NCBI GenBank assembly: GCA_963701125.1
Contig: OY969568.1
Location: 3,571,108-3,635,107 of the forward strand
DNA from: an uncultured Actinomycetes bacterium
GTDB taxonomy: Bacteria > Actinomycetota > Thermoleophilia > Gaiellales > JAICJC01
Reading direction: 5' to 3'
DNA: 64,000 bases
Position 1 is the stretch's first letter. The number at the start of each line of letters is the position of its first letter. The notes below the pieces were generated by a model. That model ran no database searches. It saw nothing but the letters and a program-made list of their open reading frames with translations, and was not told the DNA's origin. This document shows positions 8,915-53,587 of this stretch, piece by piece. The position numbers and the translations under genes were made by a program.

Positions 8915-9445
8915 ATGAACTTGCATATCGGAACACGAGCACGAGCAGCCCTGGCCGTCGCGTCGATCGCCCTGGCGGCGGCGTGCGGGTCGGCCTCCGC
9001 CGGCACCGGGACGCACCAGGCGTCCGGTGTCGTCGGGACGGCCCAGAACGCCACCCTCGCGAGCAGGGTGCTCGTGAATCATCAGGGGATGACCCTCTAC
9101 ACGCTCTCGGCCGAGCGCAACGGCCGCTTCATCTGCACGGCGACTGCCAAGATTGCCGGAAGCTCGCAGCGGTGCCTCCAGGTGTGGAAGCCTCTGCTGG
9201 TGAAGGGCGCGGCGCCCACGGGCACGATCGCCGGCCTCGGCGCCGTCATGCGGCCCGACGACGGCGACACGCAGCTCACCTACAAGGGGCTGCCGCTGTA
9301 CACGTTCACCGGCGATCGCGCGGCGGGCGACGCCGCCGGCAACGGCTTCAAGGACGTCGGCACGTGGCAGGCCGCCACCGTCGGCGCGGCAGCCTCTGCT
9401 TCGGCCTCGACGACGCAGTCAAGCGGCGGCGGGTACGGCTACTGA
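8915..9445 (+). CDS. Secreted lipoprotein with Yx(FWY)xxD repeat (COG4315-like)
   Basis: Signal peptide with lipobox LAAAC, motifs LYTLSAE and LYTFTGD, and an agaggag RBS upstream. Confidence 0.75.
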   Translation: MNLHIGTRARAALAVASIALAAACGSASAGTGTHQASGVVGTAQNATLASRVLVNHQGMTLYTLSAERNGRFICTATAKIAGSSQRCLQVWKPLLVKGAAPTGTIAGLGAVMRPDDGDTQLTYKGLPLYTFTGDRAAGDAAGNGFKDVGTWQAATVGAAASASASTTQSSGGGYGY

Positions 9446-10651: not shown

Positions 10652-10723
10652 GCTCGCTCCCCTTGGAGGTTGTGCGGATCCGCACTCTAACCGCGGACAG
10701 GTGCCGAGGCCAAGGCGGTTATC

Positions 10724-35783: not shown

Positions 35784-35995
35784 ACGACTCGCAGTACCAT
35801 GCACGCGTGCAGGACGCCCGGCTCACCGCCGCCGCGACCGCGGCGCTCGACGAGGCGATCGAACGCATGGGCGCGGATGTGTGCATCTGGTCGGTCGACC
35901 TTCTGATCGACCAGATCGCAGCGGACATCGCCACCGACCCGGCCGAGGAGGAGCATCTCCGCGCGGTCCTGCGCGCGCGCCAGGGCCTGGCCTGA
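35780..35995 (+). CDS. Small hypothetical protein (GTGA-coupled to the upstream gene)
   Basis: The in-frame GTG overlaps the upstream TGA. 71 aa, acidic, balanced composition. Confidence 0.3.
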   Translation: MNDSQYHARVQDARLTAAATAALDEAIERMGADVCIWSVDLLIDQIAADIATDPAEEEHLRAVLRARQGLA

Positions 35996-36014
35996 CGCGC
36001 CCGCCAGGGCCTGG

Positions 36015-36665
36015 GTGACGCGGGCCGGTGTAGCATCGGGTGCGATGGGCGACGATCTGCGACCGGACATCGACGGGTGGGCGCGTGCGCACGGCTTCGA
36101 CCCGTCGGACGACCAGATCGGCGGGACGACTCCGCTCCTGCGCCTGGGCATGCTGGACACGACGGATGCCACCTACCGCGGGACGATCGACGGGCAGGAC
36201 GCCATCCTGGCGGAGTTCTCGGTCGGCTCGCCCGACTGGTCGGAGGCGTTCACCGCCTCGGGCATCCGCTCGAGCGGCTTCACGCTGATCCTGATCTTCG
36301 TCGACGCCTCGCGGTGGCCGCGCCTCACCGTCCATCCGAGCCGCTTCAACGACCATGACTGGGCCCGTCGGCTGCTCGGCGCCGACCACCGCGTGCACAC
36401 GCTCTCGGAGCGGATGGACGCGCGGTATCGCGTCGTGGCGTCGGCCGGCATCGGCGCCGACCGGCTCGGCCGGCTCTTCACCTCCGAGCTGGTCGAGTGG
36501 TGGCTCGCGCAGGAGCCCGAGGTGATCGTGGACATCGAGGATCACGGAGACGGGGCGGGCTTCCTCACGGTCGCCCAGCTCGGCATCGGCATCGGCGACG
36601 AGGCGCTCACGACCCTGCAGGCACAGGCGTCGCACCTGCTCGCCGCATTCTCCGCCGTCACGTAG
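36015..36665 (+). CDS. Hypothetical protein
   Basis: 216-aa ORF with normal composition. A possible ATG start lies at 36045. Confidence 0.45.
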   Translation: MTRAGVASGAMGDDLRPDIDGWARAHGFDPSDDQIGGTTPLLRLGMLDTTDATYRGTIDGQDAILAEFSVGSPDWSEAFTASGIRSSGFTLILIFVDASRWPRLTVHPSRFNDHDWARRLLGADHRVHTLSERMDARYRVVASAGIGADRLGRLFTSELVEWWLAQEPEVIVDIEDHGDGAGFLTVAQLGIGIGDEALTTLQAQASHLLAAFSAVT

Positions 36666-36679
36666 TCGTCACATAGCCG

Positions 36680-38158
36680 TCACGGCCGGCGTTCGGGGTC
36701 TGACCCCAGTGCGGCCTCGAGCGGCGAGAGGTCGGCCAGCGGCGGCTCGCCCTCGCGCCGCCGCGGCGCGTGGCTGCGGACGAGGTCATATGCGCGGCGC
36801 GTGCCCTCGCCGAGCTCGCCCGCGCGGTCGCGCAGGTCGACGGCCTGCGCCGCCAGGTAGAGCTCGACCGCGGCGACGTAGGTGCCGAGGCGGGTCATCT
36901 CCTCGACCCGGCGGGCGGCCACGGGAGTGGGGATGACGCGATCCTCGATGCCCTCGGCGGTGGTCGACGTCGACAGGTCGAGCGTCGCCGGCATCGCCAG
37001 CAGGCGCGCCTCGGCCGCGGCGGCGCTCGCGCCGTAGACCACGATGCCGAGGCCGTCCGCGCTGGCCGAGTCGTCGTCGCGCAGGCCGGTCGGCAGTCCG
37101 CTGAACCCGGAGTGGACGAGCTTGTTCGCCCGCTCGCACGAGGCCGTGATCACGTGCGCGAGCGCGATCCGCACGTAGTCGAGGGTGATCCCGTAGGGGA
37201 CGGAATCGAAGTTCCCGTTCGAGAGCGCGCGGCCGTCCGGCGTGATGCTCGGGTTGTCGTGCGACGAGACGAGCTCGGCCTCGACGATCTCGCGGGCGTG
37301 GCGCAGAGCGTTGCGGGCAGCTGCGTGCGTCTGGGGAACGACCCTCATCGTCAGCGGATCCTGCAGGTGCCGGTGCAGTGTCCCGCCGAGCAGGCTGCCG
37401 CCGCGCAGGAGCGCCTGCAGCCGCTCGATCTCGTCGGCGATCCCGGGCACCGGGCGCGCGTCGGCGACGGCCGGGTCGAACGCCTGCACGTTGCCCAGCA
37501 TGCCCTCGAACGTGAGCGCGGCCGCCGCGTCGAAGCGGTCGAGCAGCGTGCCGGCACCGATCAGGCCGAGCGCCGACCAGCCGAGCGAGAACCCGTTCGC
37601 GTTCACGAAGGCGAGCGCCTCCTTGGCCGTCGGCTCCCACGGCGTGAGGCCGAGCCGCTCGAGCTCGCCGGACCATGTGCCCTCGCCGGTCAGGGCGGCC
37701 GCGAGGTCGGCCAGCGGACCGAGGTCTGACTGACCCAGCGAGCCCGTCGTGCGCACGTGCGGGACGAGCCCGGCGTTCAGCGCCGCGATCAGGTGATCGG
37801 CCAGCAGCGGCCGCACGCCGGAGCGCCCGCGCGCGAAGCCGGCCACCTGGGCGAGCATGACGGCGCGCACGACCCGCTCGGGCACGTCGGGGCCCGTCCC
37901 GGTGCGGTGCGAGAGCAGCATGAGCCGGTTGAACGCGAGCTGCTCGTCGCGCTTGACGGCCACGCGCTTGAGCGCGCCGACGCCGGTCGTCAGGCCGTAC
38001 ACGCGCTCGCCGCGGGCAAGGAGCGCGTCGGTCACCTCGCGGGCGCGCTCGATGCGCGCACGGGCGGCGTCGGCCAGCTCCACGCGCCGGCCGCGCACGG
38101 CGACGTCGGCCACGTCCTCGAGCGTGAGGCTCGCGTCGAGCAGGAGCGCGCCGGTCAC
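36680..38158 (-). CDS. HAL/PAL-fold (aromatic amino acid lyase family) protein lacking the Ala-Ser-Gly MIO triad
   Basis: Family-wide similarity (YGLTTGVGAL..., GSLGQSDLGPLADL, QDPLTMRVVPQ, SHDNP, NGNFDS). Canonical G-A-S-G-D-L is replaced by G-Q-S-D-L. The GTG start overlaps the upstream TGA. Confidence 0.75.
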   Translation of the reverse strand: MTGALLLDASLTLEDVADVAVRGRRVELADAARARIERAREVTDALLARGERVYGLTTGVGALKRVAVKRDEQLAFNRLMLLSHRTGTGPDVPERVVRAVMLAQVAGFARGRSGVRPLLADHLIAALNAGLVPHVRTTGSLGQSDLGPLADLAAALTGEGTWSGELERLGLTPWEPTAKEALAFVNANGFSLGWSALGLIGAGTLLDRFDAAAALTFEGMLGNVQAFDPAVADARPVPGIADEIERLQALLRGGSLLGGTLHRHLQDPLTMRVVPQTHAAARNALRHAREIVEAELVSSHDNPSITPDGRALSNGNFDSVPYGITLDYVRIALAHVITASCERANKLVHSGFSGLPTGLRDDDSASADGLGIVVYGASAAAAEARLLAMPATLDLSTSTTAEGIEDRVIPTPVAARRVEEMTRLGTYVAAVELYLAAQAVDLRDRAGELGEGTRRAYDLVRSHAPRRREGEPPLADLSPLEAALGSDPERRP

Positions 38159-39257
38159 GATGTCCGGAAGAACGGCTCGCCGAGCGCCTCGACCCGCACG
38201 GTCACGCCGAGGCCCGGCGCGGCCGGCGCGGCGCGGCGGCCGCCCTGCGGCTCGGGCAGGCCGTCGGCGTTTTGCGATCGTGACCCAGTCGGTGAAGTCG
38301 ACGGTGTGGGCGCGGTTGGGCTCGGGGGTCGAGTGCGACAGGTGCAGCATGGCGGCGGTGTCGATCGTAGCCCCGCCGGTGTCCTCGACCGTCACGGTCA
38401 TGCCGAGCTCGACCGCCGCGTCGCGCATGGCCGCCGCCCGCGTGACCCCGCCGACACGCGCGAGCTTGATCGTGACGCCGTCGGCTCCCGCCTCGCGCCG
38501 GGCGCGCACGAGCTCCGGGAGCGACACGATCGACTCGTCGAGCACGAGCGGATGGCTGCAGTGGGCGCGCAGCGCCGCGCACTCCTCGAGGGTCGCGCAC
38601 GGCTGCTCGAGCGTGTGGTCGATGTTCTCGGTCGCGCGCATGAACCGCCGCGCGGCCGACGTCGTCCAGCCGCCGTTTGCGTCGGCGAAGAGGACGATGT
38701 CCGGGCCGACGGCGTCACGCACGGCGCCGAGCCGGGCCGCGTCTGCGGCCGGGTCGCCGCCGACCTTGATCTGCAGCCGCCGGTAGCCGGCGCCGACGTG
38801 GCTGCGTGCGCGCTCCACGACATCGTCGAGCGTCGCCGGGCGAGATCGAGCGGTAGAGGTCGACCGCCGCCCCGAAACGGCCGCCGAGGGCCTCGCACAG
38901 CGGCTGGCCGTGCAGGCGCGCGGTCGCGTCCCAGCAGGCCATGTCGAGCGCCGACTTGACGTACGGCTGGCCGCGCATGGCGGCGTCCATGAGCTGCACG
39001 ATCCGGCGCGGCTGGCGGGGGTCTGCGCCCACGACGTGCGGGGCGAGCAGGACGATGCCGGCGCGGGCGCCCTCGGCGAACGCGTCGGCGTAGAAGGCGC
39101 CGAGCGGTGCCATCTCGCCCCAGCCGGTCACACCCTCGTCGGTGTCCACCGCGACGACGAGCGAGTCGAAGCCGTCGGTCGCGCCGCCCGACGTCGAGTA
39201 GGGGCCGGCCGCGAACGGCTGCAGCTGGCGGTATGCGCGGACGCCGCTGATGCGCAT
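38155..39257 (-). pseudogene. Enolase-superfamily (MR/MLE) enzyme interrupted by two +1 frameshifts
   Basis: The N-domain (VTGWGEM...KSALDMACWD) is in ORF 38715..39536, and the barrel (QIKVGG, DANGGW, LEQP, LDES, IKLARVGG) in ORF 36680..38818. The C-terminus (NADGLPEP...APGLGVTVRVEAL) is in a third frame. Breaks lie near 38845 and 38270. Confidence 0.8.
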
Positions 39258-39267
39258 CGAGGCGCGA

Positions 39268-40704
39268 CTAGTCCCCGAGCTCCGCGCGGCGGCGCACGAC
39301 GTAGGCATCGAGCTGCGCCCGCACGTCGGGATCGAGCGGCGGCTGCTCGTAGGACTCGATCGTCGCGCGCCAGATCTCGCCCGCCCGCTCGGCCGCGTCG
39401 CGCGAGCCCTTCGACTTCCACCGCTCGAAGTTCTCGGTCGAGGACAGGAGCGGCCGGTAGAAGCAGGTGCGGAACCGCTCCAGCGTGTGCGCGGCGCCCA
39501 GGAAGTGCCCGCCGTGGCCGACCTCCTCATGCGCACCGTAGGCCAGGCTCGCCTCGTCCACCTCGAGCGGCGTGAACTCCTCCTGCAGCATCCGCAGCAT
39601 CTCGATGTCGATGATGAACTTCTCGTAGGAGGCCACGAGCCCGGACTCGAGCCAGCCGGCCGCGTGCTCGACGTAGTTGGCGCCCGCCAGGAACGCGGGC
39701 AGCATCGTGTTCAGCCCCTCGTAGGCCGCCTGCGCGTCAGGCGTCTGGCTCGACGTGAGGAAGCCGCCGCCGGCCCGCCACGGCACGCCGAAGCGGCGCG
39801 CCACCTGGCCCGAGCAGAGCAGGCCCATCGCCGACTCGGGGCCGCCGAACCCGGGCGATCCCGACTGCATGTCGGTGTGGGACAGGAACGAGCCGAGCAC
39901 GACGGGCGCGCCCGGGCGCACGAGCTGCGCGAGCGCCAGGCCGGCCAGCGCCTCGGCCGTCTGCTGCACAAGCGCCGCCGGCACCGATGCCGGCGACATC
40001 GCGCCCATGAGCAGGAACGGCGTGATGATCACCGCCTGCCCGGCCTCGGCGTAGATCGTCATCGCCTCGAGCATGCGGGTGTCGTAGCGAAGCGGCGAGT
40101 TGGCGTTGACGACGCCGAACATGCGCACCTCGCCGTCGGCGGGGCCGCCGTGCAGGATGTCGGTCATCGCGACCGAGTCCGCCGCGGCGTCCTGCGAGAT
40201 GACCGCGCCCATGTACGGCTTGTCCGTGAGCGTCTGCACGGCGAGCAGCATGTCGAGGTGACGCGAGTCGAGCGGGCGGTCGCCCGGCTCGCAGCAGAGG
40301 CCGCCCGGCGTGTCCAGCTGGTCGAACGACTGGCTCAGCCGGCAGAACTGCTCGAAGTCGTGCATCGTCGCCTCGCGGCGGTCCGCGCCCTCACGCACGA
40401 ACGGCGGCCCCTGGGTGGGGGCGAAGAACATGTGCCGGCCGCCCACGTGCACGCTCCGATCCGGGTTGCGCGCGACCAGCGGGAACTCCCGCGGCGTCGT
40501 CGCGACCTGCTCGAGCACCCAGTCGGGGTCGAAGCGCACGACCGAGTCCTCGACCCGCTGCCCCGCGGCGCGGAAGCGATCGAGCGACTCGTCGTGCAGG
40601 AACTCGATCCCGATGTCGGACAGGAGCCGCCGCCAGCCGCGCTCGAGCACGGCCATCGCATCCTCCGAGAGGATGTCGTAGCGGGGCATGTCGTTTCGGA
40701 ACAT
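39268..40704 (-). CDS. MttB-superfamily methyltransferase, non-pyrrolysine type (quaternary-amine/betaine methyltransferase-like)
   Basis: 478 aa with an uninterrupted frame and no internal TAG. Similar to trimethylamine methyltransferase family proteins along its whole length (from memory). Its start overlaps the kinase stop. Confidence 0.75.
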   Translation of the reverse strand: MFRNDMPRYDILSEDAMAVLERGWRRLLSDIGIEFLHDESLDRFRAAGQRVEDSVVRFDPDWVLEQVATTPREFPLVARNPDRSVHVGGRHMFFAPTQGPPFVREGADRREATMHDFEQFCRLSQSFDQLDTPGGLCCEPGDRPLDSRHLDMLLAVQTLTDKPYMGAVISQDAAADSVAMTDILHGGPADGEVRMFGVVNANSPLRYDTRMLEAMTIYAEAGQAVIITPFLLMGAMSPASVPAALVQQTAEALAGLALAQLVRPGAPVVLGSFLSHTDMQSGSPGFGGPESAMGLLCSGQVARRFGVPWRAGGGFLTSSQTPDAQAAYEGLNTMLPAFLAGANYVEHAAGWLESGLVASYEKFIIDIEMLRMLQEEFTPLEVDEASLAYGAHEEVGHGGHFLGAAHTLERFRTCFYRPLLSSTENFERWKSKGSRDAAERAGEIWRATIESYEQPPLDPDVRAQLDAYVVRRRAELGD

Positions 40705-42095
40705 CAGCGCACCGGCCCGCGGCCGGCGGCGGGGAGGGAGATGCCGAAGGTGGTGGATCCCGGCTGCGATCGCACCGTGATCGCACCTCGGTGGCCGATG
40801 ACGATCCGCCGCGCGATGTCGAGGCCGAGGCCGCTGCCGTCGCCGACCGACTTCGTCGTGAAGAAGGGCTCGAAGATGCGCGACTGGACCTCGGCGGGAA
40901 TGCCGGGGCCGTCGTCTGCGATCTCGACCAGGATGTCGTCGCCGAGCGCCCGGGTCGTGATCGTGATCGTGCCCCTGGGCCGGCCGGCGAGGGCGTCGAG
41001 GGCGTTCGTGAGCAGGTTCGTCCACACCTGGTTCAGCTCGGAGCCGTGCACGGTCACGGGCGGAAGGGTGCGGTCATAGCTGCGCTCGATCTTCACGGGC
41101 TCGTGCTTGATGCGGAACTTCAGCATGGTCAGCGTGCTGTCCAGGCCGTCGTGCACATCGACGTCCTCGACCGCGGCCCGGTCCATGTGCGTGTAGTCCT
41201 TGATCGCGGCCACGAGCTCGGAGATCCGCGCGGTCGACTCGTGCAGCTCGCCGACGAGCGTGTGGGCGGTGAGCGACGCCGCCACCCACTCGAGGGCCGG
41301 GCCGGTCGCCGGCCCCGCGGCCGTCGCCACCTGCTCGAGCCACTCCTCGTTCAGGCAGGCCCGGGCCAGCGGCTCGGCCAGCCGCCAGCCCTCCTGGCCC
41401 ATGTCGTCGAGCAGGACGGCCAGCCGGTCTTCGCGGTCGGCCGAGGCGACCGAGCCGTCGCCCTCGCCGGCGCGCGCGAGCGCGGACTGCTGCAGCGCGA
41501 CCAGCCGGGCGGCGTCCTCGCGCTCGACGCCGCTCGACACGAAATGGTGCACCGTGTCCTGCAGCGTCGCGAGCGCCTCACCGAGCTCGGTGGCCGTCCG
41601 CCGTGCCGCCGCCGCCGGGTTGTTCAGCTCGTGGGCGAGGCCGGCCGAGAGCGTGCCGAGCGCCGCGAGCTTCTCCTGCTGGCGCACGAGCGCGTCGGCC
41701 GCCTGGGCGATCGGCGCGATCAGGCGCACGGCGGTGCGCATCGCGCTCGGCGTTTCGCGCAGGAACGATCGGAACGTGGCGGCGTCCCAGGTCAGGAGCC
41801 GCACGTCGGTCGTCGCGTGGCCGCTCGCGAGCAGGGGGTCGCCGGTGAGCAGGTTGGCGGCGCCCGCGTAGGTGGGCGCCTCGCGCTCGCTCAGGAACAC
41901 GTCGACGCCGTTGATGCAGCGCGTCCACTCGACGCGGCCTTCGACGACGACCGAGAAGCGCTCGAGCTTCGTGCCTTCGGTGAAGAGCGCCTCGCCGATC
42001 CCGAGGTGCGCCTCCTGTCCTTGCGCGGCGAACGCGGTCAGCGCGTCGGGATCGACGCCCTCGAAGAGGTCGAGCTGCTCGAGCACCTCGATCAC
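40704..42095 (-). CDS. Sensor histidine kinase with an N-terminal CAP/cNMP-binding-like domain
   Basis: CAP beta-barrel-like N-terminus, H-box LAHELNNP, N box WTNLLTNALDA, G boxes DDGPGI and GSGLGL. No TM segment. Confidence 0.8.
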   Translation of the reverse strand: MIEVLEQLDLFEGVDPDALTAFAAQGQEAHLGIGEALFTEGTKLERFSVVVEGRVEWTRCINGVDVFLSEREAPTYAGAANLLTGDPLLASGHATTDVRLLTWDAATFRSFLRETPSAMRTAVRLIAPIAQAADALVRQQEKLAALGTLSAGLAHELNNPAAAARRTATELGEALATLQDTVHHFVSSGVEREDAARLVALQQSALARAGEGDGSVASADREDRLAVLLDDMGQEGWRLAEPLARACLNEEWLEQVATAAGPATGPALEWVAASLTAHTLVGELHESTARISELVAAIKDYTHMDRAAVEDVDVHDGLDSTLTMLKFRIKHEPVKIERSYDRTLPPVTVHGSELNQVWTNLLTNALDALAGRPRGTITITTRALGDDILVEIADDGPGIPAEVQSRIFEPFFTTKSVGDGSGLGLDIARRIVIGHRGAITVRSQPGSTTFGISLPAAGRGPVR

Positions 42096-43777
42096 ACGGC
42101 CGCCGCCAGGTACTCGTGCACGAAGTGCACCGCCATCGAGCCCTCGCCGACGGCCGAGGCGACCCGCTTCATCGACTCGCTGCGCACGTCGCCGGCCACG
42201 AACACGCCCGCCATGCTCGTCTCGAGCAGGTAGGGGTCGCGGTCGAGGCGCCAGCGCGGCCGCACCTCCTCGCGCAGCACCTCGGCGCCCGCGAGCACGA
42301 AGCCGCGCCCGTCGCGGGCGACGCCGTCGGGCAGCCAGTCGGTCTGCGGGCGGGCGCCGATGAAGACGAACATGGCCGCGAGTTCGACCTCGTCCTCGGC
42401 GCCGGTGACCGTGTCGCGCACCGTGACCCGCTCGAGCGAGTCGCTGCCGTGGGCCGCGGTGACCTCGCCGTTCAGGCGCACGTCGATGTTGGGCGTGGCC
42501 TCGATGGTGTCGATCAGGTAGCGCGACATGCTCTTCGCAAGGCTCGTGCCGCGGTAGAGCAGCGTCACCCGCTGGGCGTAGCCGGCGAAGTAGATCGCCG
42601 CCTGGCCGGCCGAGTTGGCGCCGCCCACGACGACGACGTGCTCGTCGCGGCACGACACGCCCTCGCTGCGCGAGCCGCCGTAGTAGACGCCGCGGCCCGA
42701 GAGCGCCTCGATGCCGGGGGCGTCGAGCCGGCGGTAGTCCACGCCGGTGGCGATGATGATGGCCTTGGCGCCCAGCTGGTCGTGCCCGGCCAGGTGCACG
42801 AGCCGCGCCGGGCCGCGCTCGTCGATCGCCGTCACCTCCTGCACGGTCAGGAGCTCGGCGCCGAAGCGGGTCGCCTGCGCCGTCGCACGGCGGGCGAGGT
42901 CGGCGCCGGAGAGCCCCACCGGGAAGCCGAGGTAGTTCTCGATCCGCGAGCTCTGACCGGCCTGGCCGCCGGGCGCCTCGCGCTCGATCAGCGCGGTGCG
43001 CAGGCCCTCGGACGCGCCGTACACCGCCGCGGCGAGGCCGGCCGGGCCGCCGCCCACGATCACGAGGTCGTAGAACTCGAGCTCGGCGCGGCGGCGGACA
43101 CCGGCCCGCTCGGCCAGCTCCGCCACCGTCGGCCCGTGCAGCACGCCGCCGTCGGGGAAGAGCACGAGCGGCAGCGCCGCCGACCCGTCGGCCGCCGCCA
43201 GCAGGCGTTGCCCCTCGTCGTCGCGCTCGACGTCGAGCCAGCGGTAGGGCACCTGGTTTCGGGCCAGGAAGTCGCGGGCGTCATGTGACTCGCGCGACCA
43301 CCGGTGGCCGACCACCTGGATGCGGTCGGCGTCGGCGGGCGCGTCGGCCTTCCAGGCGTCGAGCAGGTCGTCGAGCACCGGGTAGAGCTGCTCGTCGGGC
43401 GGATCCCACGGCTTCAGCAGATAGTGGTCGAGCGAGACGCGGTTGATCGCGTCGATGGCCGCCTGGGTGTCGGCATACGCGGTGAGGAGCACGCGTTTGG
43501 CCTCGGGGGCGACGCGCATCGCCTCCTCGAGGAACTCGACGCCCGACATCTCCGGCATGCGCTGGTCGGCGAGCAGGAGCGCGACCGCGGCACCGCGCAG
43601 CTTTGACTCGCGGACGGCTGCGAGCGCCGCCTCGCCGCTCTCGGCGCGCAGGATGCGATAGTCGCGCCCGTAGCGCCGGCGCAGGTCGCGCTCGACCGCC
43701 CGCGCGACCGACGGCTCGTCGTCGACGGCGAGCAGCACGGGGCGTGCGCCCTCGCGCGTCTCGGGAACGCTGCTCAC
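42092..43777 (-). CDS. Fused response-regulator receiver / thioredoxin-fold linker / thioredoxin-reductase-like flavoprotein
   Basis: Receiver (LLAVDDEP, LLLADQRMPEMSG, LLTAY, KPW), two Rossmann motifs (VIVGGGPAGL, VVVGGANSAG) and GVFVAGDV. The whole protein has a single Cys and no CxxC. Confidence 0.85.
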   Translation of the reverse strand: MSSVPETREGARPVLLAVDDEPSVARAVERDLRRRYGRDYRILRAESGEAALAAVRESKLRGAAVALLLADQRMPEMSGVEFLEEAMRVAPEAKRVLLTAYADTQAAIDAINRVSLDHYLLKPWDPPDEQLYPVLDDLLDAWKADAPADADRIQVVGHRWSRESHDARDFLARNQVPYRWLDVERDDEGQRLLAAADGSAALPLVLFPDGGVLHGPTVAELAERAGVRRRAELEFYDLVIVGGGPAGLAAAVYGASEGLRTALIEREAPGGQAGQSSRIENYLGFPVGLSGADLARRATAQATRFGAELLTVQEVTAIDERGPARLVHLAGHDQLGAKAIIIATGVDYRRLDAPGIEALSGRGVYYGGSRSEGVSCRDEHVVVVGGANSAGQAAIYFAGYAQRVTLLYRGTSLAKSMSRYLIDTIEATPNIDVRLNGEVTAAHGSDSLERVTVRDTVTGAEDEVELAAMFVFIGARPQTDWLPDGVARDGRGFVLAGAEVLREEVRPRWRLDRDPYLLETSMAGVFVAGDVRSESMKRVASAVGEGSMAVHFVHEYLAAAV

Positions 43778-44055
43778 GCCCCTCCCGCGACGGTGAAGAC
43801 CACCTCGTCGGTGTAGCACCAGAACCAGTCCTCGCCTGGCTCGGCCGACCGGATCACGACGTGGCCGCTCGAGTTGACGTGCGCGGTCGCGTGCCGGTTG
43901 GGCGAGGAGTCGCAGCAGCCGATGTGGCCGCAGGTCGTGCACATCCGCAGGTGCAGCCAGCGCGAGCCCATCGCCAGGCACTCCTCGCACCCGGCGATCG
44001 TCTCCGGAAGCTCGGTCACCTCGATCTGATCCATATGGGTGCAGGTTTCCGCCAC
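43774..44055 (-). CDS. UBP-type zinc-finger protein
   Basis: CTHMD...CEECL...WLHLRMCTTCGHIGCCDSSPNRHATAH...GH pattern. Its TGA stop overlaps the GTG start of the downstream RR/TrxR-like gene (GTGA). Confidence 0.8.
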   Translation of the reverse strand: MAETCTHMDQIEVTELPETIAGCEECLAMGSRWLHLRMCTTCGHIGCCDSSPNRHATAHVNSSGHVVIRSAEPGEDWFWCYTDEVVFTVAGGA

Positions 44056-44141
44056 GTGGGCCCCCCTTGTCGGCGCGGTCGAATTCTTCGACCGATGCCT
44101 ACCACAACCGCGGCGGGGATGCGCGGCGGATCCCGGCGTTT

Positions 44142-44178
44142 GGGGACTGTCCCCGGTTTGCGGGGACAGTCCCCGGTT
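44142..44178. repeat. Doublet of the 13-bp palindrome: GGGGACTGTCCCCggtt tgc GGGGACAGTCCCCggtt
   Basis: Read directly. It lies between the MCP 3' end and the zf-UBP operon start. Confidence 0.9.
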
Positions 44179-44188
44179 CTCGGGATGC

Positions 44189-45919
44189 CTAGAGGCGGAA
44201 GTGCGAGACGAGCCGCTCGAGCGTCTGTGCGGTGGCCGCGAGCTCCTGCGACGAGGCGTTGATCTGCTGTGCGGCGGCGCTCGTCTCCTCGGCCGACGAC
44301 GAGACCTCCTGCGTGGCGGCAGAGGACTCCTCGGCGACGACCGCGACCTGCGACGAGGACGCCGCGATCTGCTCGATCCGGTGAGTCATGTCCTCGACGG
44401 CGGCGCCGATCTGGCCGAAGGCCGTGCGCGCCTCGGCCACGATGGCCGCGCTCTCGTCGCTGCGCTGGGCGCTCTCGGTGGCGGCGGCGACCGTGCGCTG
44501 CGTCTCGACCTGGATCTCGCCGATCAGGCCGGCGATCTGCTCGGCGGCGCGGCGCGACTCCTCGGCCAGCTTGCGCACCTCCTCGGCGACGACGGCGAAG
44601 CCGCGGCCCTGCTCGCCGGCGCGGGCGGCCTCGATGGCCGCGTTGAGCGCCAGCAGGTTCGTCTGGCCGGCGATGCCCGAGATCGTCTCGACGATCCCGC
44701 CGATCCGCTCCGAGCGGTTCGCCAGCTCGCCGATGGCATCGGCCATGTCGGCCGACGACTGGCGGACGGCCGCCATCGCACCGGTGGCCTGCTCGGCGGC
44801 GCCGACGCCGCGGGCGGCCACCTCGCTCGCCTGCCCGGCGGCCGTGGCGGACTCGGACGCGAGATCGCGGGTCGTCTGCACCATCGCCAGCTGGCGGTCG
44901 GCGCCGCCGGCGACGTTCTGGACAGCGCGCGCGATGTCGTCGACGGCCCGGCTCGTCTCGCTCGACGTGGCGGTCAGCTCCTGCGATGCCCCGCTCAGGT
45001 GCGTCGCCGCGCCCGACACCTCGGTGATCACGTTTCGGAGCGCCTCGACCATCCGGGCGACCGCGTGCGAGAGGACGTCGTGCTCGGACTTCGGCGTGAC
45101 CTCGACCGCCAGGTCGCCGCCGGCGACCCGTGTCACCGAGTCGGCGAGCTCCTGCAGGTAGGCCATCATCCGGCCGAACGCGCGGGTGGCGTCGCCGAGC
45201 TCGTCGGTGTTCTCGGTGTTCACGTCGTGGTCGAGCTCGCCCAGCGCGATGCCCTCGGCCGCTGCCAGCAGCCGCTGGGCGCGCCGGCCGATGCGGCGGG
45301 TGAGCAGCGTCGCGAGCGCCGTCGCCGTCACGAGGGCCGTCAGGCTGAACAGCGCGATTGCCCACTCCGCGTGGCTCGAGGTGCTCCCGGCCTGCGCCGT
45401 CAGCGTCGTCTCACGCGTCCGAAGCGTCGACTGATAGGCGGTGAGCGCCTCGACGATGCCGTCGCTGGCCTGGTCGGCGGAGCCGTTGAGAATCGCCTTG
45501 GCCTGCGCATGGCGGCCGGCGGTGAGCAGTCCGAACATCCGCGTGCCGACGGCGTTGGAATGGGCGACGGCGGCGTCGATGCGTGCGACCGCGGCGTGGT
45601 CGCTGCCGGTGCCCGCCAGCGCGTCCAGCCGGTGGAGCGCCCGCATGAAGGTCGTGTGATCGGCCGCGTAGTCGGCCTGCGCGCTCGCGGTCGAGGCGAG
45701 CACCGCGCGCGTCTGCGAGAAGTGCATGTCGGCGGCCGCAGAGCGGACGTCGTCCGCAGCGATCAGGCGCGGGGTCACCGAGCGGTCGACGCTGTTCGAG
45801 ACCGAAGTCAGCTCCGAGAGGCCCCACCATGCGACGCCGGAGAGCCCGAGCAGCAGGAGCACGACGACACCGAAGCTCAGGCCGAGCTTCGACCTGATCG
45901 TCCCTGCGATGGCTGGCAT
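44189..45919 (-). CDS. Methyl-accepting chemotaxis protein (4HB-type sensor, HAMP, MA domain)
   Basis: The highly conserved signalling hairpin [40 protein letters not shown], with two TM segments. ATG at 45919 follows ggag. Confidence 0.9.
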
Positions 45920-46001
45920 GTGCGGCTCCTGATCCGAACGACGGCTTGGCGCGGGCGACGCGCGCCGCGCATCCGGGTGATCGGCCGCTCCCCGATCTGG
46001 A

Positions 46002-46973
46002 TTAGGCGACGAGGCGCGCAGCCGCCCGCGTGCGGGCGTCATCCGGCGCGAACGAGGCGTCGAGCGCCGCGCGGTTGCAGCGGGCCAGGTCGGCATCCGA
46101 CCAGGCGAACGTGGCCCGCAGCCGCGCGTACTCGCGCTCGAGGTCGATGTCGGTGGTCGCGCGGCAGTCGGTGTTCACACCGAGCGACACGCCCCGCCGG
46201 TAGAGCGCGTCGATCGGGTGATCGGCGTAGGTGTCGCACAGGTCGGTCTGGACGTTGGACGACGGGCACAGCTCGAGGTGGATGCCCGTCTCGACCAGGT
46301 GGTCGACCAGCGCCGGATCCTCGATGCTGCGCGCGCCGTGGCCGATGCGCTCGGGCCGCAGCCGGCGCAGCGTCTCCCACACGCTCGCGGGCCCCGACCC
46401 CTCGCCGGCGTGGGCGGTGCGGCGCAGGCCGTGCTCCTCGGCGAGGCGGAACGCGGCCTCGTGCGCGTCGAGCGGATAGCCGGCCTCGTCACCGGCGATG
46501 TCGAGCGCGACCACGAGCGATCCCCGGAACCGGTCGACGAGCTCCACGGTCTCGAGACTCTGGGCGGCGGCGAAGTGGCGCAGCGTGCACAGGATCAGGC
46601 GGGCATCGACGCCGCTTGCGGCGATCGCCCGACCGACCGCAGCATCGACGATCTCGACGACCTCGGTCGCGGTCAGGTCGCCCTCGGTGTGCAGGTGGGG
46701 CGCGAACCGGGCCTCGGCATAGACGACGTTGTCGCGCGCGAGCTGGTCGAACAGGTCGTCGACCATCACCTCGAGGCCGCGCCTGTCCTGCATCAGCGCC
46801 ACGATGCGCGGCGGCCGCAGCAGGAAGTCGGCCAGGTTGGTGCACTTGGCGGGGGCGACGAAGTCGGTTCGGTACTGCTCGAGCGTCACCTCGGGCCGCA
46901 GCCGGGCGACGGCGGCATGGCTCGCGGCACAGTCGAGGTGGAGGTGCAGCTCGACCTTGGGCAGCCCCGGCAT
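46002..46973 (-). CDS. add: Adenosine deaminase
   Basis: [10 protein letters not shown], ...HAGE..., and [12 protein letters not shown] (SxNTDD-like). Confidence 0.85.
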
Positions 46974-47008
46974 CGGCGGATCGTAGTCCGGCGATACTGT
47001 CGGGCGGC

Positions 47009-47698
47009 ATGCCCGGCCGCCAGCACCTGATCTTCGACGCCGACGACACGCTGTGGGAGAACAACATCGTGTTCGAGGCGGTGATCGCGGACTTCATCAC
47101 CTGGATCGACCATCCGCAGCTGGCCGAGGCCGAGGTGCGGGCGGTGCTCGACGAGGTCGAGCGCCTGCACGCGGCCGAGCACGGGTACGGCACCAAGGTC
47201 TTCGCGCTCACGCTCGAGGTGACGGCGCGGCGGCTGCGCGAAGGCGAGCTCACCGACCCGGATCGCGAGCAGATCGCACGGCTGCTGTCGCGGCTCGCAT
47301 GGGATCAGCTCGAGATCATCGAGGGCGTGCCCGAGACGCTGGCCGAGCTGCGCGGCCGGCACGACCTGCTCCTCCTGACCAAGGGCGACCACGAGGAGCA
47401 GGCCCACAAGATCGCCCGCTCTGGCCTCGCGCAGTACTTCCGGCGCACGGTGATCACGCCCGAGAAGAACGCGGAGACCTACCGCGACCTGGTCGTGACC
47501 GCCATGCTCGACCCGGCCCGGACGTGGATGATCGGGAACTCGCCGCGCTCGGACATCCTGCCGGCGGTCGAGGCCGGCCTGCGCGGCGTGTTCGTCCCCC
47601 ACGAGCACACCTGGCGCCTGGAGCATTCCGAGCTGCCCGAGACGCACGACCGCATCCTGCGGCTGCCGCACTTTCGCGCCCTGCTCGACCACTTCTAG
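47009..47698 (+). CDS. HAD-superfamily hydrolase
   Basis: LIFDADDTLW (DxDxT), LLTKGD, and MIGNSPRSDI motifs. ATG at 47009, only 35 bp from the divergent add start. Confidence 0.75.
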   Translation: MPGRQHLIFDADDTLWENNIVFEAVIADFITWIDHPQLAEAEVRAVLDEVERLHAAEHGYGTKVFALTLEVTARRLREGELTDPDREQIARLLSRLAWDQLEIIEGVPETLAELRGRHDLLLLTKGDHEEQAHKIARSGLAQYFRRTVITPEKNAETYRDLVVTAMLDPARTWMIGNSPRSDILPAVEAGLRGVFVPHEHTWRLEHSELPETHDRILRLPHFRALLDHF

Positions 47699-47731
47699 CG
47701 GCCGCGCAGCCGGGAAGCGGGACGGAGAGGC

Positions 47732-47765
47732 GGGGACTGTCCCCGATCGATCGGGGACAGTCCCC
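47732..47765. repeat. Doublet of the 13-bp palindrome forming a perfect 34-bp palindrome (GGGGACTGTCCCC gatcgatc GGGGACAGTCCCC)
   Basis: Read directly. It lies between the convergent HAD and ahcY 3' ends and is a possible bidirectional terminator. Confidence 0.9.
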
Positions 47766-47787
47766 AGCGCTTCGCGCTTGCCGCCGC

Positions 47788-49242
<1,455 letters not shown>

Positions 49243-49264
49243 GAAGGCTCCAGAAGGGTCGGAA

Positions 49265-50206
49265 TCAGGGCTGTGAGACGAGCTCGACGGGCGTGTGCTC
49301 GAACGTGCTGATGCGGGTCAGGCCGTCGACGCGGGTGCGGATCTCGTCCGAGCGCAGCCGCGCGACGCGGTCGGTGCCGAACTCCTCCACGTTGAACGAC
49401 GCGAGCGCCGTTCCGTACGCCATCGCCTGTCGCAGCACGTCGTCGGTGACGCCGTGCTCCACATGCCGTGCAACATAGCCCAGGAAGCCGCCCGCGAACG
49501 TGTCACCGGCGCCCGTCGGGTCGACGACGCTCTCGAGCGGGAAGGCGGGCAGCGAGAAGTACGAGTCGGGCGTGAACATGGCGGCGCCGTACTCGCCCTG
49601 CTTGGAGACGATCACGCGCGGCCCCATCAGCAGCAGGTCGCGCGCGGCCGTGACGAGGTTCGGCTTGCCGGTGAGCTGGCGCAGCTCGGCGTCGTTCAGG
49701 AGCACGCAGTCGACCCGCCGGATCACGTCCATCAGCTCGTCCCGGGCGCTCGAGATCCAGTAGTTCATCGAGTCGAGGGCGACGAAGCGCGCCGAGGTGC
49801 AGCTCTCGCGCACCGCGAGCTGGAGCGACGGCTGGATGTTGGCCAGGAAGAGGACGTCGCAGGCGCGCGACGCCGGCGAGAGCTTCGGCTCGAACTCGGC
49901 GAAGACGCCGAGCTCGGTCGCGAGCGTGTGGCACTGGTTCAGGTCCCAGCCGTACTCGCCGTGCCAGAAGAACGTCCGCCCGCCGGACACCCGCTCGATG
50001 TCCGAGACGTCGGTGCCACGGGTGCGCAGGACGTCGATCTCGGCGTCGCCGAAGTCGTCGCCCACCGGTCCGACGACGCTGACCGTGTCGAAGAACGACG
50101 CCGCCAGGGCGAAGTAGGTCGCGGCGCCGCCGAGCATCCGCTCGCGCTCGCCGAAGGGGCTCTTGACCCGATCAAAGGCGATCGAGCCGACGACCGTTAC
50201 GCCCAT
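49265..50206 (-). CDS. PfkB-family kinase (adenosine/sugar kinase-like)
   Basis: [13 protein letters not shown] motif and PfkB fold pattern. ATG at 50206. Confidence 0.75.
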
Positions 50207-50222
50207 CGGGCGCCGCGCCTGG

Positions 50223-51458
50223 TCATGCCGACACCGCGGCGGCCGCGCCGAGCCCGGCGGCGGCGCGCAGGATGTCGGCGCGGTCGGTGCGCTCCCAGGT
50301 GAAATCGGGATCGTCGCGGCCGAAGTGGCCATAGGCGGCGGTCTTCTGATAGATCGGCCGGTGCAGGCGCAGCTCCTCGCGGAACGCTCCGGGGCGAAGG
50401 TCGAAGTGCTCCGAGATCAGCTCGGCGATCCGTCCCCGGCCGATGCGCTCGGTGCCGAACGTCTCGACCATCACCGAGACCGGATGCGCCACGCCGATCG
50501 CGTAGGCCACCTGCACCTCGGCGCGGCCGGCCAGGCCCGCCGCGACGACGTTCTTGGCCACCCAGCGCGCGGCGTAGGCGGCGGAGCGGTCGACCTTGGA
50601 CGGGTCCTTGCCACTGAACGCGCCCCCGCCGTGGCGGGCCATGCCGCCGTAGGTGTCGACGATGATCTTGCGGCCGGTGAGGCCGCAGTCGCCCATCGGG
50701 CCGCCGATCACGAACCGGCCGGTCGGGTTGACCAGGAAGTCGCGCCGCAGGAGGCGCTCGTCGTACAGGTCGATCGGGAGCACGTGCCGAACGACATGCT
50801 CCCAGAGGTCCGGCTTGATCTGCGTCTCGCAGTCGATGCCGTCGGCGTGCTGGGTCGAGATCAGGAGCTTCTCGACCGCGACCGGGCGGCCGTCGCGGTA
50901 ACGCACGGTCACCTGCGTCTTGCCGTCGGGGCGCAGATAGGGGATGAGGCCGCTCTTCCGGACTTCCGCCAATCGCCGCGCCAGGCCGTGGGCGAGGGCG
51001 ATCGGCATCGGCATCAGCTCGGGTGTCTCGTCCGTCGCGTAGCCGAACATCATCCCCTGGTCGCCCGCGCCGGCAGCCGCCACGCGATCGTCGTCGTCGC
51101 CGCCGCCGCGCGTCTCGTAGGCGTGGTCGACCCCCTGGGCGATGTCGGGCGACTGGCGGTCGATCGTGTTCATGACGGCGCAGGTGTCGCAGTCGAAGCC
51201 GTAGGCGGCGTTGTCGTAGCCGATCCGGCGCACCGTCTCGCGGGCGATGCCCTGGACGTCGACGTAGGTGGATGTCGAGATCTCGCCCGAGACGACGATC
51301 AGGCCCGTGTTCACCAGCGTCTCGCAGGCGACCCGTCCATACGGATCATCCGCGAGCACGGCGTCGAGGACGCCGTCCGAGATCTGATCGGCCATCTTGT
51401 CCGGGTGGCCCTCGGTCACCGACTCGGACGTGAAGAGATACTCGTTGTCTGCGGTCAT
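50223..51458 (-). CDS. metK: S-adenosylmethionine synthetase
   Basis: [25 protein letters not shown], and [19 protein letters not shown]. Confidence 0.95.
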
Positions 51459-53197
51459 GCGGGTGGAGCCTCGCTTTCTGCGGCTCGCGTCACCTCGACG
51501 AGGTACGCGATGATGACGTTCCGGTCTCCCAGGCGCAGGTGGTACGCGTCCGACAGCTGCTCCACCCGGTGGATCTGCTCCTCCTTGTCCTCGAACAGGT
51601 CCGAGAACTCGAAGAACCCGAAGTCTACGACCCTGGACGCGAATCCTGCCCGGTCGAGCAGCGCGGCGGTGCGCCGCTGGCCGATGATCGAGAGCTGCAT
51701 CAGGTAGAGAACGCCGTCTGCGGCGAGCGCCTCGGGCAGCATCGCGATCAGCCGATCGATCAGATTGCGGCCCCAGTAGTCGAGCGGCCGGTGGGTCGAG
51801 ACGGGCTCGAAGGGGTCGACCGGCGTCTGGTAGAGGCTCGCGACGATCACGTCGTAGCGCTCCTCGGGCACCCACGGGTAGAGGTCGACGGCCGCCGCTG
51901 TTACCCGGCCGGCGACGCCGTTTCGAAACGCGTTCGTGAGCGTGTTCTGCGCCGCACGGCGGTCGACGTCGATCGCGTGCACATGCTCGGCGCCGTTGCG
52001 GGCGAGCTGCACGGTCTGCAGGCCGGTGCCGCAGCCGACGTCGAGGCAGCGCAGGCCGGCGCCCACCCGCTGGCTGAACAGGTACTTCCACACCAGGTAG
52101 CTGCCCTGGGTGGGCACGAACACGCCCGGCTCGCACAGGATGTCGGGGAAGTCGAGCGGGTAGAGCGACGAGCCGCGGGCGTCCGTCCAGGGCTCGACCC
52201 GCGCCCCGGGGGGCAGCACGCCCTCGTCCGCCTCGGTGCCGACGAGTTCGAGCGGGCGCGCATTGCCGGGGCGGGTGCCGTCGAGGGCGGCGCGGGCGGC
52301 GGCGACGTGCTCGGGGCCGACACCGCAGCACCCGCCGACGATCTGGGCGCCCTCGTCGCGCCAGCGCAGGGCCATCTGCGCGTACTCCGCTCCGCCGATG
52401 CCCGACTCGGTGCGCCAGCCGGCCGTCGAGAGGTAGCCGAGGTTGGGGTACGCGCCGAGTGGCAGGTCGGTGAAGTCGCGCATCCACGAGATCATCCCGC
52501 CCACGTGGTCGGGGGGAATGCAGTTCACGAGCAGGGCGCTCACGCCCATCTGCTCGAACCGGCGGGCGGCGCGGCCGAACGAGTCGCCCTCCGGCCCGCC
52601 CCAGTGCTCGCCGTAGACGCCGCAGACGCCGCTTCGGCAGCGCCGGAAGCTGAGCCACACCGGCAGCGCCGTGCCCAGCAGGCGCTCGACGGTGTCGTAG
52701 GTCGTGGGGCGCACGAGCGAGAGCGTCTCGAGCAGGATGACGTCGGGCGGGTCGTCCTCGAACACGCGCGCGAGCAGGCGGATCGTCTCGGCCCCCTCGG
52801 GCGTGTCAACGTCGCCGTTCAGGCTGAACGCGACCGCGCACTCGCCGGTGCGGCCGGCGTCGGCGACCGCCTGGCGCGCGAGCTGCACGCCGCGGCGGGC
52901 GACGTCCATCCAGTGCACCGGCCGCTCGGCCTCCCACAGCTGCGGCCGCTCGTCGCGCAGCGCCGTCGGCAGGCCCCACGTGTCGGTGCTGATCACGTCG
53001 CAGCCGACCTCGACGTAGCGGCGGTGCACGCGCAGCACGTCCTCGGGGGAGCGCACGAGCGCGCCGGTGCCCCACAGCCGGTCTTCGAGCTCGGGATGCT
53101 CGCCCGCCGGCTCCCGCAGCTCCGTGGCGGTGCCGCCGTCGAGGATGACGCAGCGGTCCTGCTCGATCAGCTCGATGATCCGGGCGTGCGCGCTCAA
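51455..53197 (-). CDS. Fusion protein: homocysteine S-methyltransferase domain plus class I SAM-dependent methyltransferase domain
   Basis: N-terminal half: [10 protein letters not shown]...LLETL...[11 protein letters not shown]-terminal half: [30 protein letters not shown] overlap with metK. The start is uncertain: TTG at 53197, or ATG at 53299, which would overlap the divergent cupin gene. Confidence 0.75.
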
Positions 53198-53207
53198 GGA
53201 GCCCGGA

Positions 53208-53555
53208 ATGGTAGGGGACGGGGGTATCCTGGCGCGCGTGAAGACGCCGCTCGTGATCGACTGGGACCGGCGCGAGTTCGCCGAGCTGCGGCCGCGCATC
53301 CACGGCAGTACGGTCGTCTCGGACGACCTGACCGTGACGATGTACCGCTACGGGCCCGGCTCGGAGTGGGAGGAGCACCGCCATCCCGAGGATCAGCTCA
53401 CGATCGTCGTCGAGGGCGAGATCGCATTCACCTCGGGCGGCGCCGAGCTGCGCCTCGGCCCCGGCCAGCAGGTGCTGATCCCCGGCGGCGTTCCGCACTC
53501 GGCCCGCGCCGGCGCCGCCGGCGTGGTCACGCTGAACGTGTGGCCGCCGCGGTAG
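53208..53555 (+). CDS. Cupin-domain protein
   Basis: EEHRHPEDQLTIVVEGEIAF...IPGGVPHSA. aaggag lies 6 nt upstream of the ATG at 53208; an alternative GTG is at 53238. Confidence 0.7.
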   Translation: MVGDGGILARVKTPLVIDWDRREFAELRPRIHGSTVVSDDLTVTMYRYGPGSEWEEHRHPEDQLTIVVEGEIAFTSGGAELRLGPGQQVLIPGGVPHSARAGAAGVVTLNVWPPR

Positions 53556-53559
53556 CGAT

Positions 53560-53587
53560 GGGGACTGTCCCCCTGGGGACAGTCCCC
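53560..53587. repeat. Doublet of the 13-bp palindrome with a 2-nt spacer (GGGGACTGTCCCC ct GGGGACAGTCCCC)
   Basis: Read directly. It lies 25 nt upstream of the P450 start codon and 5 nt after the cupin stop. Confidence 0.9.

Follow-up and report, generated by a model that had tools for sequence, protein, structure and literature searches.

Why should a short palindrome recur, letter for letter, just behind the stop codons of functionally unrelated genes? The question is raised by a 64 kb stretch of the chromosome of an uncultured Actinomycetes bacterium (order Gaiellales; assembly GCA_963701125.1, contig OY969568.1, positions 3,571,108 to 3,635,107), referred to below as the window, in which the 13-mer GGGGACWGTCCCC forms three inverted doublets within 9.5 kb. 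We hold it to be probable that these doublets are a family of the type of repetitive extragenic palindromes (REPs) and of their paired, inverted form, the REPINs. The family would be served by a single-copy TIRYT, that is, a gene resembling those of REP-associated tyrosine transposases (RAYTs) but bounded by terminal inverted repeats (TIRs), of the Y1 type and subclass 2.1, located elsewhere on the chromosome.

A 13-nt palindrome paired at gene ends

The repeat unit is a 13-nt near-palindrome, GGGGAC-W-GTCCCC, whose orientation is marked solely by the central A or T. Exactly six matches to GGGGACWGTCCCC are present in the window, starting at positions 44142, 44162, 47732, 47753, 53560 and 53575, against 0.01 expected from dinucleotide-preserving shuffles. 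They make up three inverted doublets, each consisting of a T-centred unit followed by an A-centred one (Table 1), and all three are intergenic, 4-33 nt past a stop codon. An earlier note on this DNA, made by eye, had described the same doublets with the same spacers and intergenic placement, and exact matching agrees with it, as the sequence does with the perfect 34-bp palindrome it had seen at the second site. Its statement that no other ggggac or gtcccc copy exists holds for the 13-mer, of which there is no seventh, but not for the hexamer: in either strand form this occurs 35 times in the window, 23 of them outside the motif, compared to 59 expected by chance. The window thus harbors a short extragenic palindrome far above chance expectation (6 vs. 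0.01 within 64 kb), as is typical of REPs, and its units are arranged as hairpin-forming inverted pairs with spacers of 7, 8 and 2 nt, as is typical of REPINs.

The RNA hairpins predicted for the three doublets comprise 12-17 bp, with energies of -30 to -42 kcal/mol and z-scores of -4.7 to -7.3. Doublet 1 reaches -41.7 kcal/mol on the + strand and -36.9 on the - strand, doublet 2 -42.1 / -38.0 kcal/mol and doublet 3 -31.7 / -29.8 kcal/mol. As single-stranded DNA the hairpins are predicted at -15 to -21.5 kcal/mol (-19.7 for doublet 1), and a lone 13-mer can pair no more than 5 bp, around a CWG triloop (-6.4 kcal/mol as RNA). Neither strand has a run of T behind the hairpin at any of the three sites; for want of a U tract, the terminator scan passes over all of them (0/3 called). 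Folding and scan therefore agree with the description of each doublet, in the earlier note, as a 12-17-bp GC hairpin devoid of a U tract. No Rfam 15 covariance model matched anywhere in the window at its gathering score, and a listing of inverted repeats over the whole window returned mostly GC palindromes of coding regions and nothing informative.

Occurrence of the repeat across phyla

Reference genomes were scanned for two copies of the 13-mer lying 0-30 nt apart. Doublets or arrays were found in at least 119 stretches from at least 99 assemblies (counted by accession prefix) and about 15 phyla, with a GC content of 38-74%. Hosts among the matches listed include Actinomycetota (Coriobacteriia, Thermoleophilia and others), Planctomycetota, Omnitrophota, Acidobacteriota, Bacillota and Bacteroidota, as well as Kiritimatiellia and Lentisphaerae, Pseudomonadota, Patescibacteria, Armatimonadota, Thermotogota, Elusimicrobiota, WOR-3, Binatia and Myxococcota. 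Many of the listed loci present additional single copies nearby, or tandem arrays with periods of 14-39 nt, and the 13-mer is often lengthened by a locus-specific complementary flank forming an outer stem (e.g., aaaaGGGGACAGTCCCCtttt).

Neighbouring pairs among the matches listed are AA in 67 cases, TT in 52, AT in 35 and TA in 15. Pairs are thus mostly direct, which indicates that the conserved unit is the single 13-mer and not the doublet hairpin; an obligatory hairpin between arms, tested by the complementarity of the centre bases, was ruled out on these grounds. As in the window, copies avoid genes and accumulate behind them: only 35% of the copies in low-GC listed loci fall within open reading frames (ORFs) of at least 150 aa, compared to 76% of random positions, and 25 of the 65 clusters in high-GC listed loci lie at most 40 nt past a stop codon, compared to 2% of random positions. 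In a Lederbergia locus, the motif stands 3-5 nt past the stop codons of an amidase gene and of a gene for a methyl-accepting chemotaxis protein (MCP).

In a stretch of Lederbergia galactosidilytica (L049, 788-7487) nearly every intergenic gap contains the 13-mer, and the same holds for other Bacillaceae of 38-44% GC (L095, L105 and L106). In these Bacillaceae a second palindrome, of the ttaacgcgttaa type, often forms a pair with the 13-mer, suggesting that the repeat is composite.

Some other classes of repeats were considered and dropped. The 14-39 nt periods carry near-identical "spacers", unlike CRISPR-like arrays; coding repeats are disqualified by the intergenic placement of the copies and by the many periods, such as 28 and 25 nt, that are indivisible by three; and DNA uptake sequences were set aside as nothing spoke for them. 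A literature search on the exact 13-mer or 11-mer retrieved just eukaryotic primers and similar material.

Y1 transposase genes flanked by the repeat

The ORFs of all the loci L001-L142 (including L120-L137, which stem from a scan of viral contigs) and of the window were searched with phmmer and hmmsearch. In a planctomycete locus (L074) a 211-aa ORF situated between copies of the motif was identified as Pfam Y1_Tnp (IS200-like). Overall, a Y1 transposase ORF is present in 6 of the 119 listed motif loci (L074, L063, L112, L115, L019 and L016). The published frequency of class 2 TnpA-Y1 genes, found in about a quarter of species with 1-2 copies each (PMC6006769), would lead one to expect about 0.1 such loci. 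The 13-mer stands on both sides of the gene in L074, L063 and L112, and on one side in L016, where the gene runs to the contig end. One planctomycete metagenome-assembled genome (MAG) carries both the flanked transposase of L074 and, on another contig (L084), dispersed copies.

Five of the flanked genes match PF01797 Y1_Tnp (E = 1e-13 to 8e-15), and all four flanked proteins that were aligned match NCBIfam NF047646, the REP-associated tyrosine transposase (the first with 79.7 bits against a cut-off of 80). They are 196-239 aa long and exhibit the HUH motif as NHFH, NHYH, NHIH or NHVH, the motif LWQGR, and Y...NP as YVERNP, YVDQNP or YIHYNP. The published characteristics of subclass 2.1 are the motifs NHVH / NH[YF]H, W[EQ] and Y...NP and a median length of 238 aa (PMC6006769), with a C-terminal tail; FQ may stand in place of W[EQ]. 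By these characteristics the flanked proteins may be placed in this subclass, a putative assignment based on motifs and lengths, not on a tree.

A protein-first scan of metagenomes added 80 loci encoding Y1 relatives. The exact 13-mer is the commonest 13-mer palindrome of this set and adjoins the Y1 gene in three of its loci, arranged as T,T / gene / A,A in L166, as A / gene / T in L193 and on one side in L152. Among the five two-sided loci known from both scans, four (L063, L112, L166 and L193) separate the T-centred from the A-centred copies, one kind on each side of the gene, and L074 is mixed. Most other loci of the clade carry inverted flank repeats that share the core GGGGWCAG / CTGWCCCC, such as GGGGACAGGCTAC (the reverse complement of GTAGCCTGTCCCC), GGGGTCAGATCCC, GGGGTCAGACTCC and GGTGACAGGCTAC; three more Y1 genes, on long contigs, have GGGGACATTCTAC (GTAGAATGTCCCC in reverse complement) as their flanking repeat. 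Where both flanks are available (70 loci), 62 loci show an inverted flank repeat of 10 nt or more, which contains GGGGWC in 24 of them.

The type of repeat tracks the protein subclade. The four proteins flanked by the exact 13-mer (L112, L166, L193 and L152) share 36-45% identity and group with those of the GGGGAC-type loci; GGGGTC-type loci form clusters apart from these. The 13-mer is best read, on comparison of these sequences, as a member of a cross-phylum superfamily whose core GGGGWCAG / CTGWCCCC constitutes the TIRs of Y1 genes of TnpA-Y1 subclass 2.1, called Group 1 by Bertels et al. The wide spread of the motif and its presence beside Y1 genes elsewhere support the suggestion of the earlier note that the doublets are a REP-like element rather than a case of simple terminator convergence.

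Two further Y1 loci deserve mention. In a Nitrospira MAG (L224, 2002-13969), a RAYT-like gene lies in a defence and toxin-antitoxin island with HicAB, PIN/Phd, Card1, Csm6 and Cas2. A Gemmataceae MAG (L225) harbors two Y1_Tnp genes, at 8965-9411 and 10001-10675, oriented head to head with about 600 bp between them.

Orthologous sites in related genomes

Five 20 kb loci of relatives (L138-L142) were retrieved by a search with the HAD hydrolase encoded in the window, at 83-85% and 70% protein identity. They are syntenic with the window and 83-87% identical to it at the DNA level; the nearest named homologues of the HAD protein belong to Conexibacter (59%) and to Micromonospora or Streptomyces (53-57%). 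At the three orthologous intergenic spots, the relatives present palindromes of like build whose sequence is not always the same, and sister 13-mers include GGTGCCWGGCACC and GGGGCCWGGCCCC.

Between the HAD and AhcY genes, where the doublet of the window has an 8-nt spacer, L138 has the same two 13-mers with a 6-nt spacer, L139 has GGTGCCTGGCACC ... GGTGCCAGGCACC, of the GGTGCCWGGCACC type, and L141 has several GGGGAC-type copies. Between the cupin and P450 genes, one or two copies of GGTGCCWGGCACC in L138-L142 take the place of the GGGGACWGTCCCC doublet with its 2-nt spacer. At the 3' end of the MCP gene, L140 carries GGGGCCTGGCCCC, a spacer of 7 nt as in the window, and GGGGCCAGGCCCC, and the flank ggt[t/g]ctcggg is conserved. 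Compared to the doublet of the window at 44142-44174, this element (L140, 7200-7232) shows substitutions at positions 5 and 9 of each arm, four in all and coordinated, which convert the GGGGAC type into the GGGGCC type and leave both arms palindromic and complementary. Such an arm switch could reflect compensatory evolution or replacement by the master copy of another family. Altogether, the clade of the window switches among four core variants at orthologous gene ends, with both arms changing together, and its short-spacer inverted doublets are all of the T..A kind (7/7). Copies of the exact GGGGACWGTCCCC in the window, L138 and L141 are identical in 10 of 10 cases, where neutral divergence would predict several changes.

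The sister 13-mer GGTGCCWGGCACC is likewise found around a transposase gene. On a metagenome contig of 48% GC (L205, 906-5625), 11 copies of (A/G)GTGCCAGGCACC, the same repeat, surround a Y1 gene, each within a longer unit tgtcgccaaaAGTGCCAGGCACCaatggggac.

Within the window, the only sister palindromes at up to two mismatches are GGGGCCAGGCCCC at 15115 and GGGGTCTGACCCC at 36695. The latter lies at the convergent ends of ORFs 35907-36665 (+) and 36680-39127 (-) and overlaps the last codons of the second; possibly a sister repeat has here extended or invaded the 3' end of a gene. GGGGTCAG-type repeats form the flanks of many transposases from the same Y1 clade, and GGGGTCAGACCCC is present in two copies in L141 and two in L142.

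Proposed mechanism and alternative explanations

According to the mechanism that we propose, the TIRYT encoded elsewhere on the 4.28 Mb chromosome would recognise the folded repeat on single-stranded DNA and would cut and rejoin it, so that copies spread and are homogenised; this part of the model follows the TnpA-REP of E. coli and the TnpA of IS200/IS605 (cited in PMC6006769). Copies would survive at sites that tolerate them, immediately 3' of stop codons. Secondarily, transcribed hairpins may block 3' exonucleases, cause transcription to pause or end, or dampen a neighbouring gene. In E. coli, REPs shield the mRNA upstream of them from 3' exonucleases, act as sites of transcriptional pausing or termination, and lower expression when they are very near a stop codon; by analogy, the hairpins described here probably act on RNA as those do. 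Being 4-14 nt past two stop codons and 25 nt before the start of the P450 gene, they may affect the expression of their neighbours.

Several observations weigh against this proposal. The first concern the repeat itself: the 5' GT[AG]G foot of classical REPs is absent from the 13-mer, which starts with GGGG, and no GTAG or GTGG was found in the flanks of the three sites, although GT[AG]G is present in sister repeats of the same transposase clade (GTAGCCTGTCCCC, GTAGAATGTCCCC). Quentin et al. (2018) report having found no REP-like sequences beside subclass 2.1 genes (PMC6006769). The choice of the 119 listed loci by the pattern itself is a sampling bias, and the 54 kb of the window outside the 9.5-kb span hold no copy of GGGGACWGTCCCC, which leaves three sites in view. 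In viral contigs, the 13-mer occurs in 4 stretches, GGGGTCWGACCCC in 14, and GGGGCAWTGCCCC and GGGGAGWCTCCCC in none; these counts are small and mixed, so that the comparison does not single out the 13-mer. In hindsight GGGGTCWGACCCC is a sister repeat rather than a neutral control. The centre-base orientation relative to the transposase gene also varies, being T-gene-A in L166 and L112 and A-gene-T in L193 and L063.

The remaining objections concern the enzyme. A profile built from the four closest flanked transposases retrieved more than 7,800 relatives, and among the matches listed these belong mainly to Planctomycetota, Nitrospira and metagenomes. Neither phmmer nor hmmsearch detected a Y1 transposase ORF in the window or in the five syntenic loci, about 165 kb in all, nor in any of the about 35 listed Actinomycetota motif loci. 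The RAYT/IS200-like transposase that the earlier note had recommended looking for, a check that proved decisive, thus exists in other genomes, between inverted copies of the 13-mer, and is missing from the window; we therefore infer mobilisation in this genome from those other genomes.

An GGGGTCWGACCCC doublet is found at six places on a single 51 kb giant-virus-MAG contig, IMGVR_UViG_GVMAG-S-404869-41_000001 (among L124-L137).

The same lack of a Y1 gene in the clade and in the Actinomycetota loci would be explained if the family had no transposase in this lineage and its copies were relics or products of autonomous recombination, homogenised by gene conversion or replication slippage; the switches of family at orthologous sites could stem from conversion as well. 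We nevertheless judge this unlikely. RAYT-type genes are typically single copy, so that missing one in a window that represents about 1.5% of the chromosome is to be expected. Moreover, the copies are perfectly conserved and the same as in distant phyla, which argues for continuing sequence-specific recognition rather than decay.

It is also possible to regard the hairpins as ordinary terminators or 3' stabilisers of the U-tract-less ("I-shaped") kind, which arose locally and resemble each other because each converged on a stable stem of G and C. In favour of this, each site follows a stop codon at 4-33 nt, the second one between convergent genes, the hairpins are highly stable, and relatives keep a hairpin at the same spots as its sequence changes; the coordinated replacement of GGGGAC by GGGGCC in both arms, with the 7-nt spacer kept, resembles compensatory evolution. 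Convergence, however, hardly accounts for six identical 13-mers where 0.01 are expected, nor for the palindromic nature of each single arm, dispensable in a terminator. The absence of a U tract and of any terminator call, the recurrence of the 13-mer in about 15 phyla, including tandem arrays and direct AA/TT pairs without need of pairing between arms, and its position beside Y1 transposase genes make this explanation quite improbable, even if a function as RNA 3'-end hairpin is compatible with a REP origin.

Finally, the suggestion in the earlier note of paired binding sites for a dimeric protein, i.e., operators of a regulator or nucleoid protein defining a regulon with two palindromic half-site pairs per locus, would suit the perfect 6+1+6 palindrome of each unit and the pairing of invariant arms over variable spacers, but is very hard to maintain for sites placed 3' of genes, in one case at a convergent junction where a promoter would not be expected, with a spacing of 2 to 8 nt that puts the two sites on different helical faces, with different palindromes at the same spots in relatives, with functionally unrelated neighbours (MCP, HAD/AhcY, cupin/P450), with no linked candidate regulator, and with cross-phylum copies that associate with a transposase.

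Genomic neighbourhood of the doublets

Genes of the window, whose G+C content is about 72%, were called from third-position GC and Pfam (Table 1). Doublet 1 stands 14 nt past the MCP stop codon and 86 nt ahead of the zf-UBP start at 44055. Doublet 2 separates two convergent 3' ends, 33 nt past the HAD and 22 nt past the AhcY stop codon. Doublet 3 is 4 nt past the cupin stop codon and 25 nt ahead of the P450 ATG, probably inside a cupin-P450-ferredoxin transcript. The gene coordinates confirm the placements given in the earlier note for all three (after the MCP 3' end and upstream of zf-UBP, between convergent HAD and ahcY, and 25 nt before P450).

Table 1. Repeats of the 13-mer family and neighbouring genes in the window (positions counted from its first nucleotide).
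Feature	Position	Strand	Remarks
Possible lone sister 13-mer GGGGTCTGACCCC	36695..36707	no strand	family membership uncertain
MttB	39268-41025	-	
Response regulator fused to pyridine-nucleotide oxidoreductase	42092-43990	-	
zf-UBP	43774-44055	-	
Doublet 1	44142..44174	no strand	GGGGACTGTCCCC, spacer ggtttgc (7 nt), GGGGACAGTCCCC; exact matches
MCP	44189-46096	-	stop codon 44189-44191
Adenosine deaminase	46002-46973	-	
HAD hydrolase	47009-47698	+	stop codon 47696-47698
Doublet 2	47732..47765	no strand	perfect 34-bp palindrome, spacer gatcgatc (8 nt)
AhcY	47788-49242	-	stop codon 47788-47790
PfkB kinase	49265-50332	-	
MetK	about 50223-51460	-	
Homocysteine S-methyltransferase	51455-53299	-	
Cupin	53067-53555	+	stop codon 53553-53555
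Doublet 3	53560..53587	no strand	spacer ct (2 nt)
P450	53613-54818	+	ATG at 53613

Two conserved gene clusters are found in this part of the window. A compact methyl-cycle cluster (46002-53299), kept in all relatives, encodes adenosine deaminase, AhcY, a PfkB-type kinase that probably acts on adenosine, MetK, and a fusion of homocysteine S-methyltransferase with a class I methyltransferase domain. A signalling cluster (39268-46096), conserved in L138-L142, comprises MttB, a cNMP-binding HATPase protein, the response regulator-oxidoreductase fusion, zf-UBP and MCP; the zf-UBP protein has 93 aa, and its gene overlaps that of the response regulator by a few bases in the relatives.

Significance

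To our knowledge, REP/REPIN-RAYT systems have been studied almost only in Proteobacteria, and we know of no accepted repeat partner for the largest RAYT group (Group 1 / subclass 2.1, TIRYT). If the doublets are what we propose, the range of such systems would grow by an uncultured actinobacterial lineage of high GC content and by many other phyla, and the 13-nt signature would provide a simple means to find them. The proposal would also account for very stable gene-end hairpins without U tract that annotation pipelines would take as odd terminators.

A broader possibility, which we advance tentatively and with more doubt than confidence, is that the CWG-centred 13-mers (GGGGACWGTCCCC, GGGGTCWGACCCC, GGTGCCWGGCACC and GGGGCCWGGCCCC) are the overlooked REP partners of Group 1 / subclass 2.1, reported as devoid of REPs, and belong to one pan-bacterial system. 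Were this the case, recognition by a conserved enzyme would have kept the core nearly invariant over about 15 phyla, and the clade of the window would represent a natural experiment in the co-evolution of repeat and transposase. Bertels et al. described Group 1 as the most widely distributed RAYT group, with flanking 16-mers that are mildly repeated, in about 12 copies (PMC5581495); a census of 16-mers would largely overlook a 13-nt unit whose flanks vary.

Comparison with known systems

Among the known elements that resemble the doublets, the "I-shaped" U-tract-less terminators of high-GC Actinobacteria also have a GC-rich perfect stem right after the stop codon, and behaviour at the RNA level is likely similar. 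Their sequences are, however, locus-specific, whereas here an identical motif with palindromic arms is shared across phyla and linked to a transposase elsewhere. Intrinsic (Rho-independent) terminators combine a hairpin with a U tract, and only the former is present at the three sites.

In IS200/IS605 elements, too, subterminal hairpins lie at either end of the transposase gene, and the Y1 HUH transposase recognises them in single-stranded DNA. These elements move as whole, near-identical multi-copy units, often with tnpB, whereas here the short repeat alone is dispersed; and they encode enzymes with the class 1 signature Y...Q, in contrast to the class 2 signature Y...NP of the enzymes reported here.

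The resemblance is closer with the REPs, bacterial interspersed mosaic elements (BIMEs) and REPINs of Enterobacteria and Pseudomonas, which are short extragenic palindromes forming inverted hairpin doublets at gene 3' ends and between convergent genes. In other genomes, the 13-mer shares with REP/REPIN-RAYT systems a transposase gene with inverted flanking copies (the REPtron), a Y1 HUH enzyme matching NF047646, and a repeat that co-varies with the clade of the enzyme. It differs by being shorter than the classical REP of 20-40 nt and by its association with subclass 2.1, not 2.2 or 2.5.

The closest counterpart is the TIRYT. Di Nocera, De Gregorio and Rocco (2013) gave this name to RAYT-like genes with terminal inverted repeats, which lie within "TIRtrons" (PMC3733652), and Quentin et al. 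(2018) equated them with TnpA-Y1 subclass 2.1, present in 14.9% of strains (PMC6006769). Many TIRYT TIRs share GGGGWSAS, and some of them form moderately abundant genomic families, in part self-complementary and arranged in dimers or clusters (PMC3733652). GGGGACAG, with which the A-centred unit opens (as does the reverse strand of the T-centred unit), fits this consensus (PMC3733652, PMC6006769). Elsewhere, the 13-mer flanks, in inverted orientation, Y1 proteins of about 200-235 aa with NH[FYIV]H, WQ and Y...NP; it also shares with the TIRYT repeats self-complementarity and an occurrence in dimers or clusters, as for the TIR repeats of S. maltophilia ORF 1152, and a very wide taxonomic spread. 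It departs from them by a unit of just 13 nt that is fully palindromic bar its centre, and by the dispersed doublets 3' of genes that, in the loci scanned, are alone in the lineage of the window, without transposase. As hosts of such repeat families, the available parts of the published descriptions (PMC3733652, PMC6006769, PMC5581495) do not mention Actinomycetota, Bacillota, Omnitrophota and some further phyla. Since GGGGWSAS repeat families of TIRYTs were described in 2013, the claim of the earlier note of a new family does not stand in its strong sense: the class of repeat is known, and what is new here is the host lineage, together with an unusually short, fully palindromic unit.

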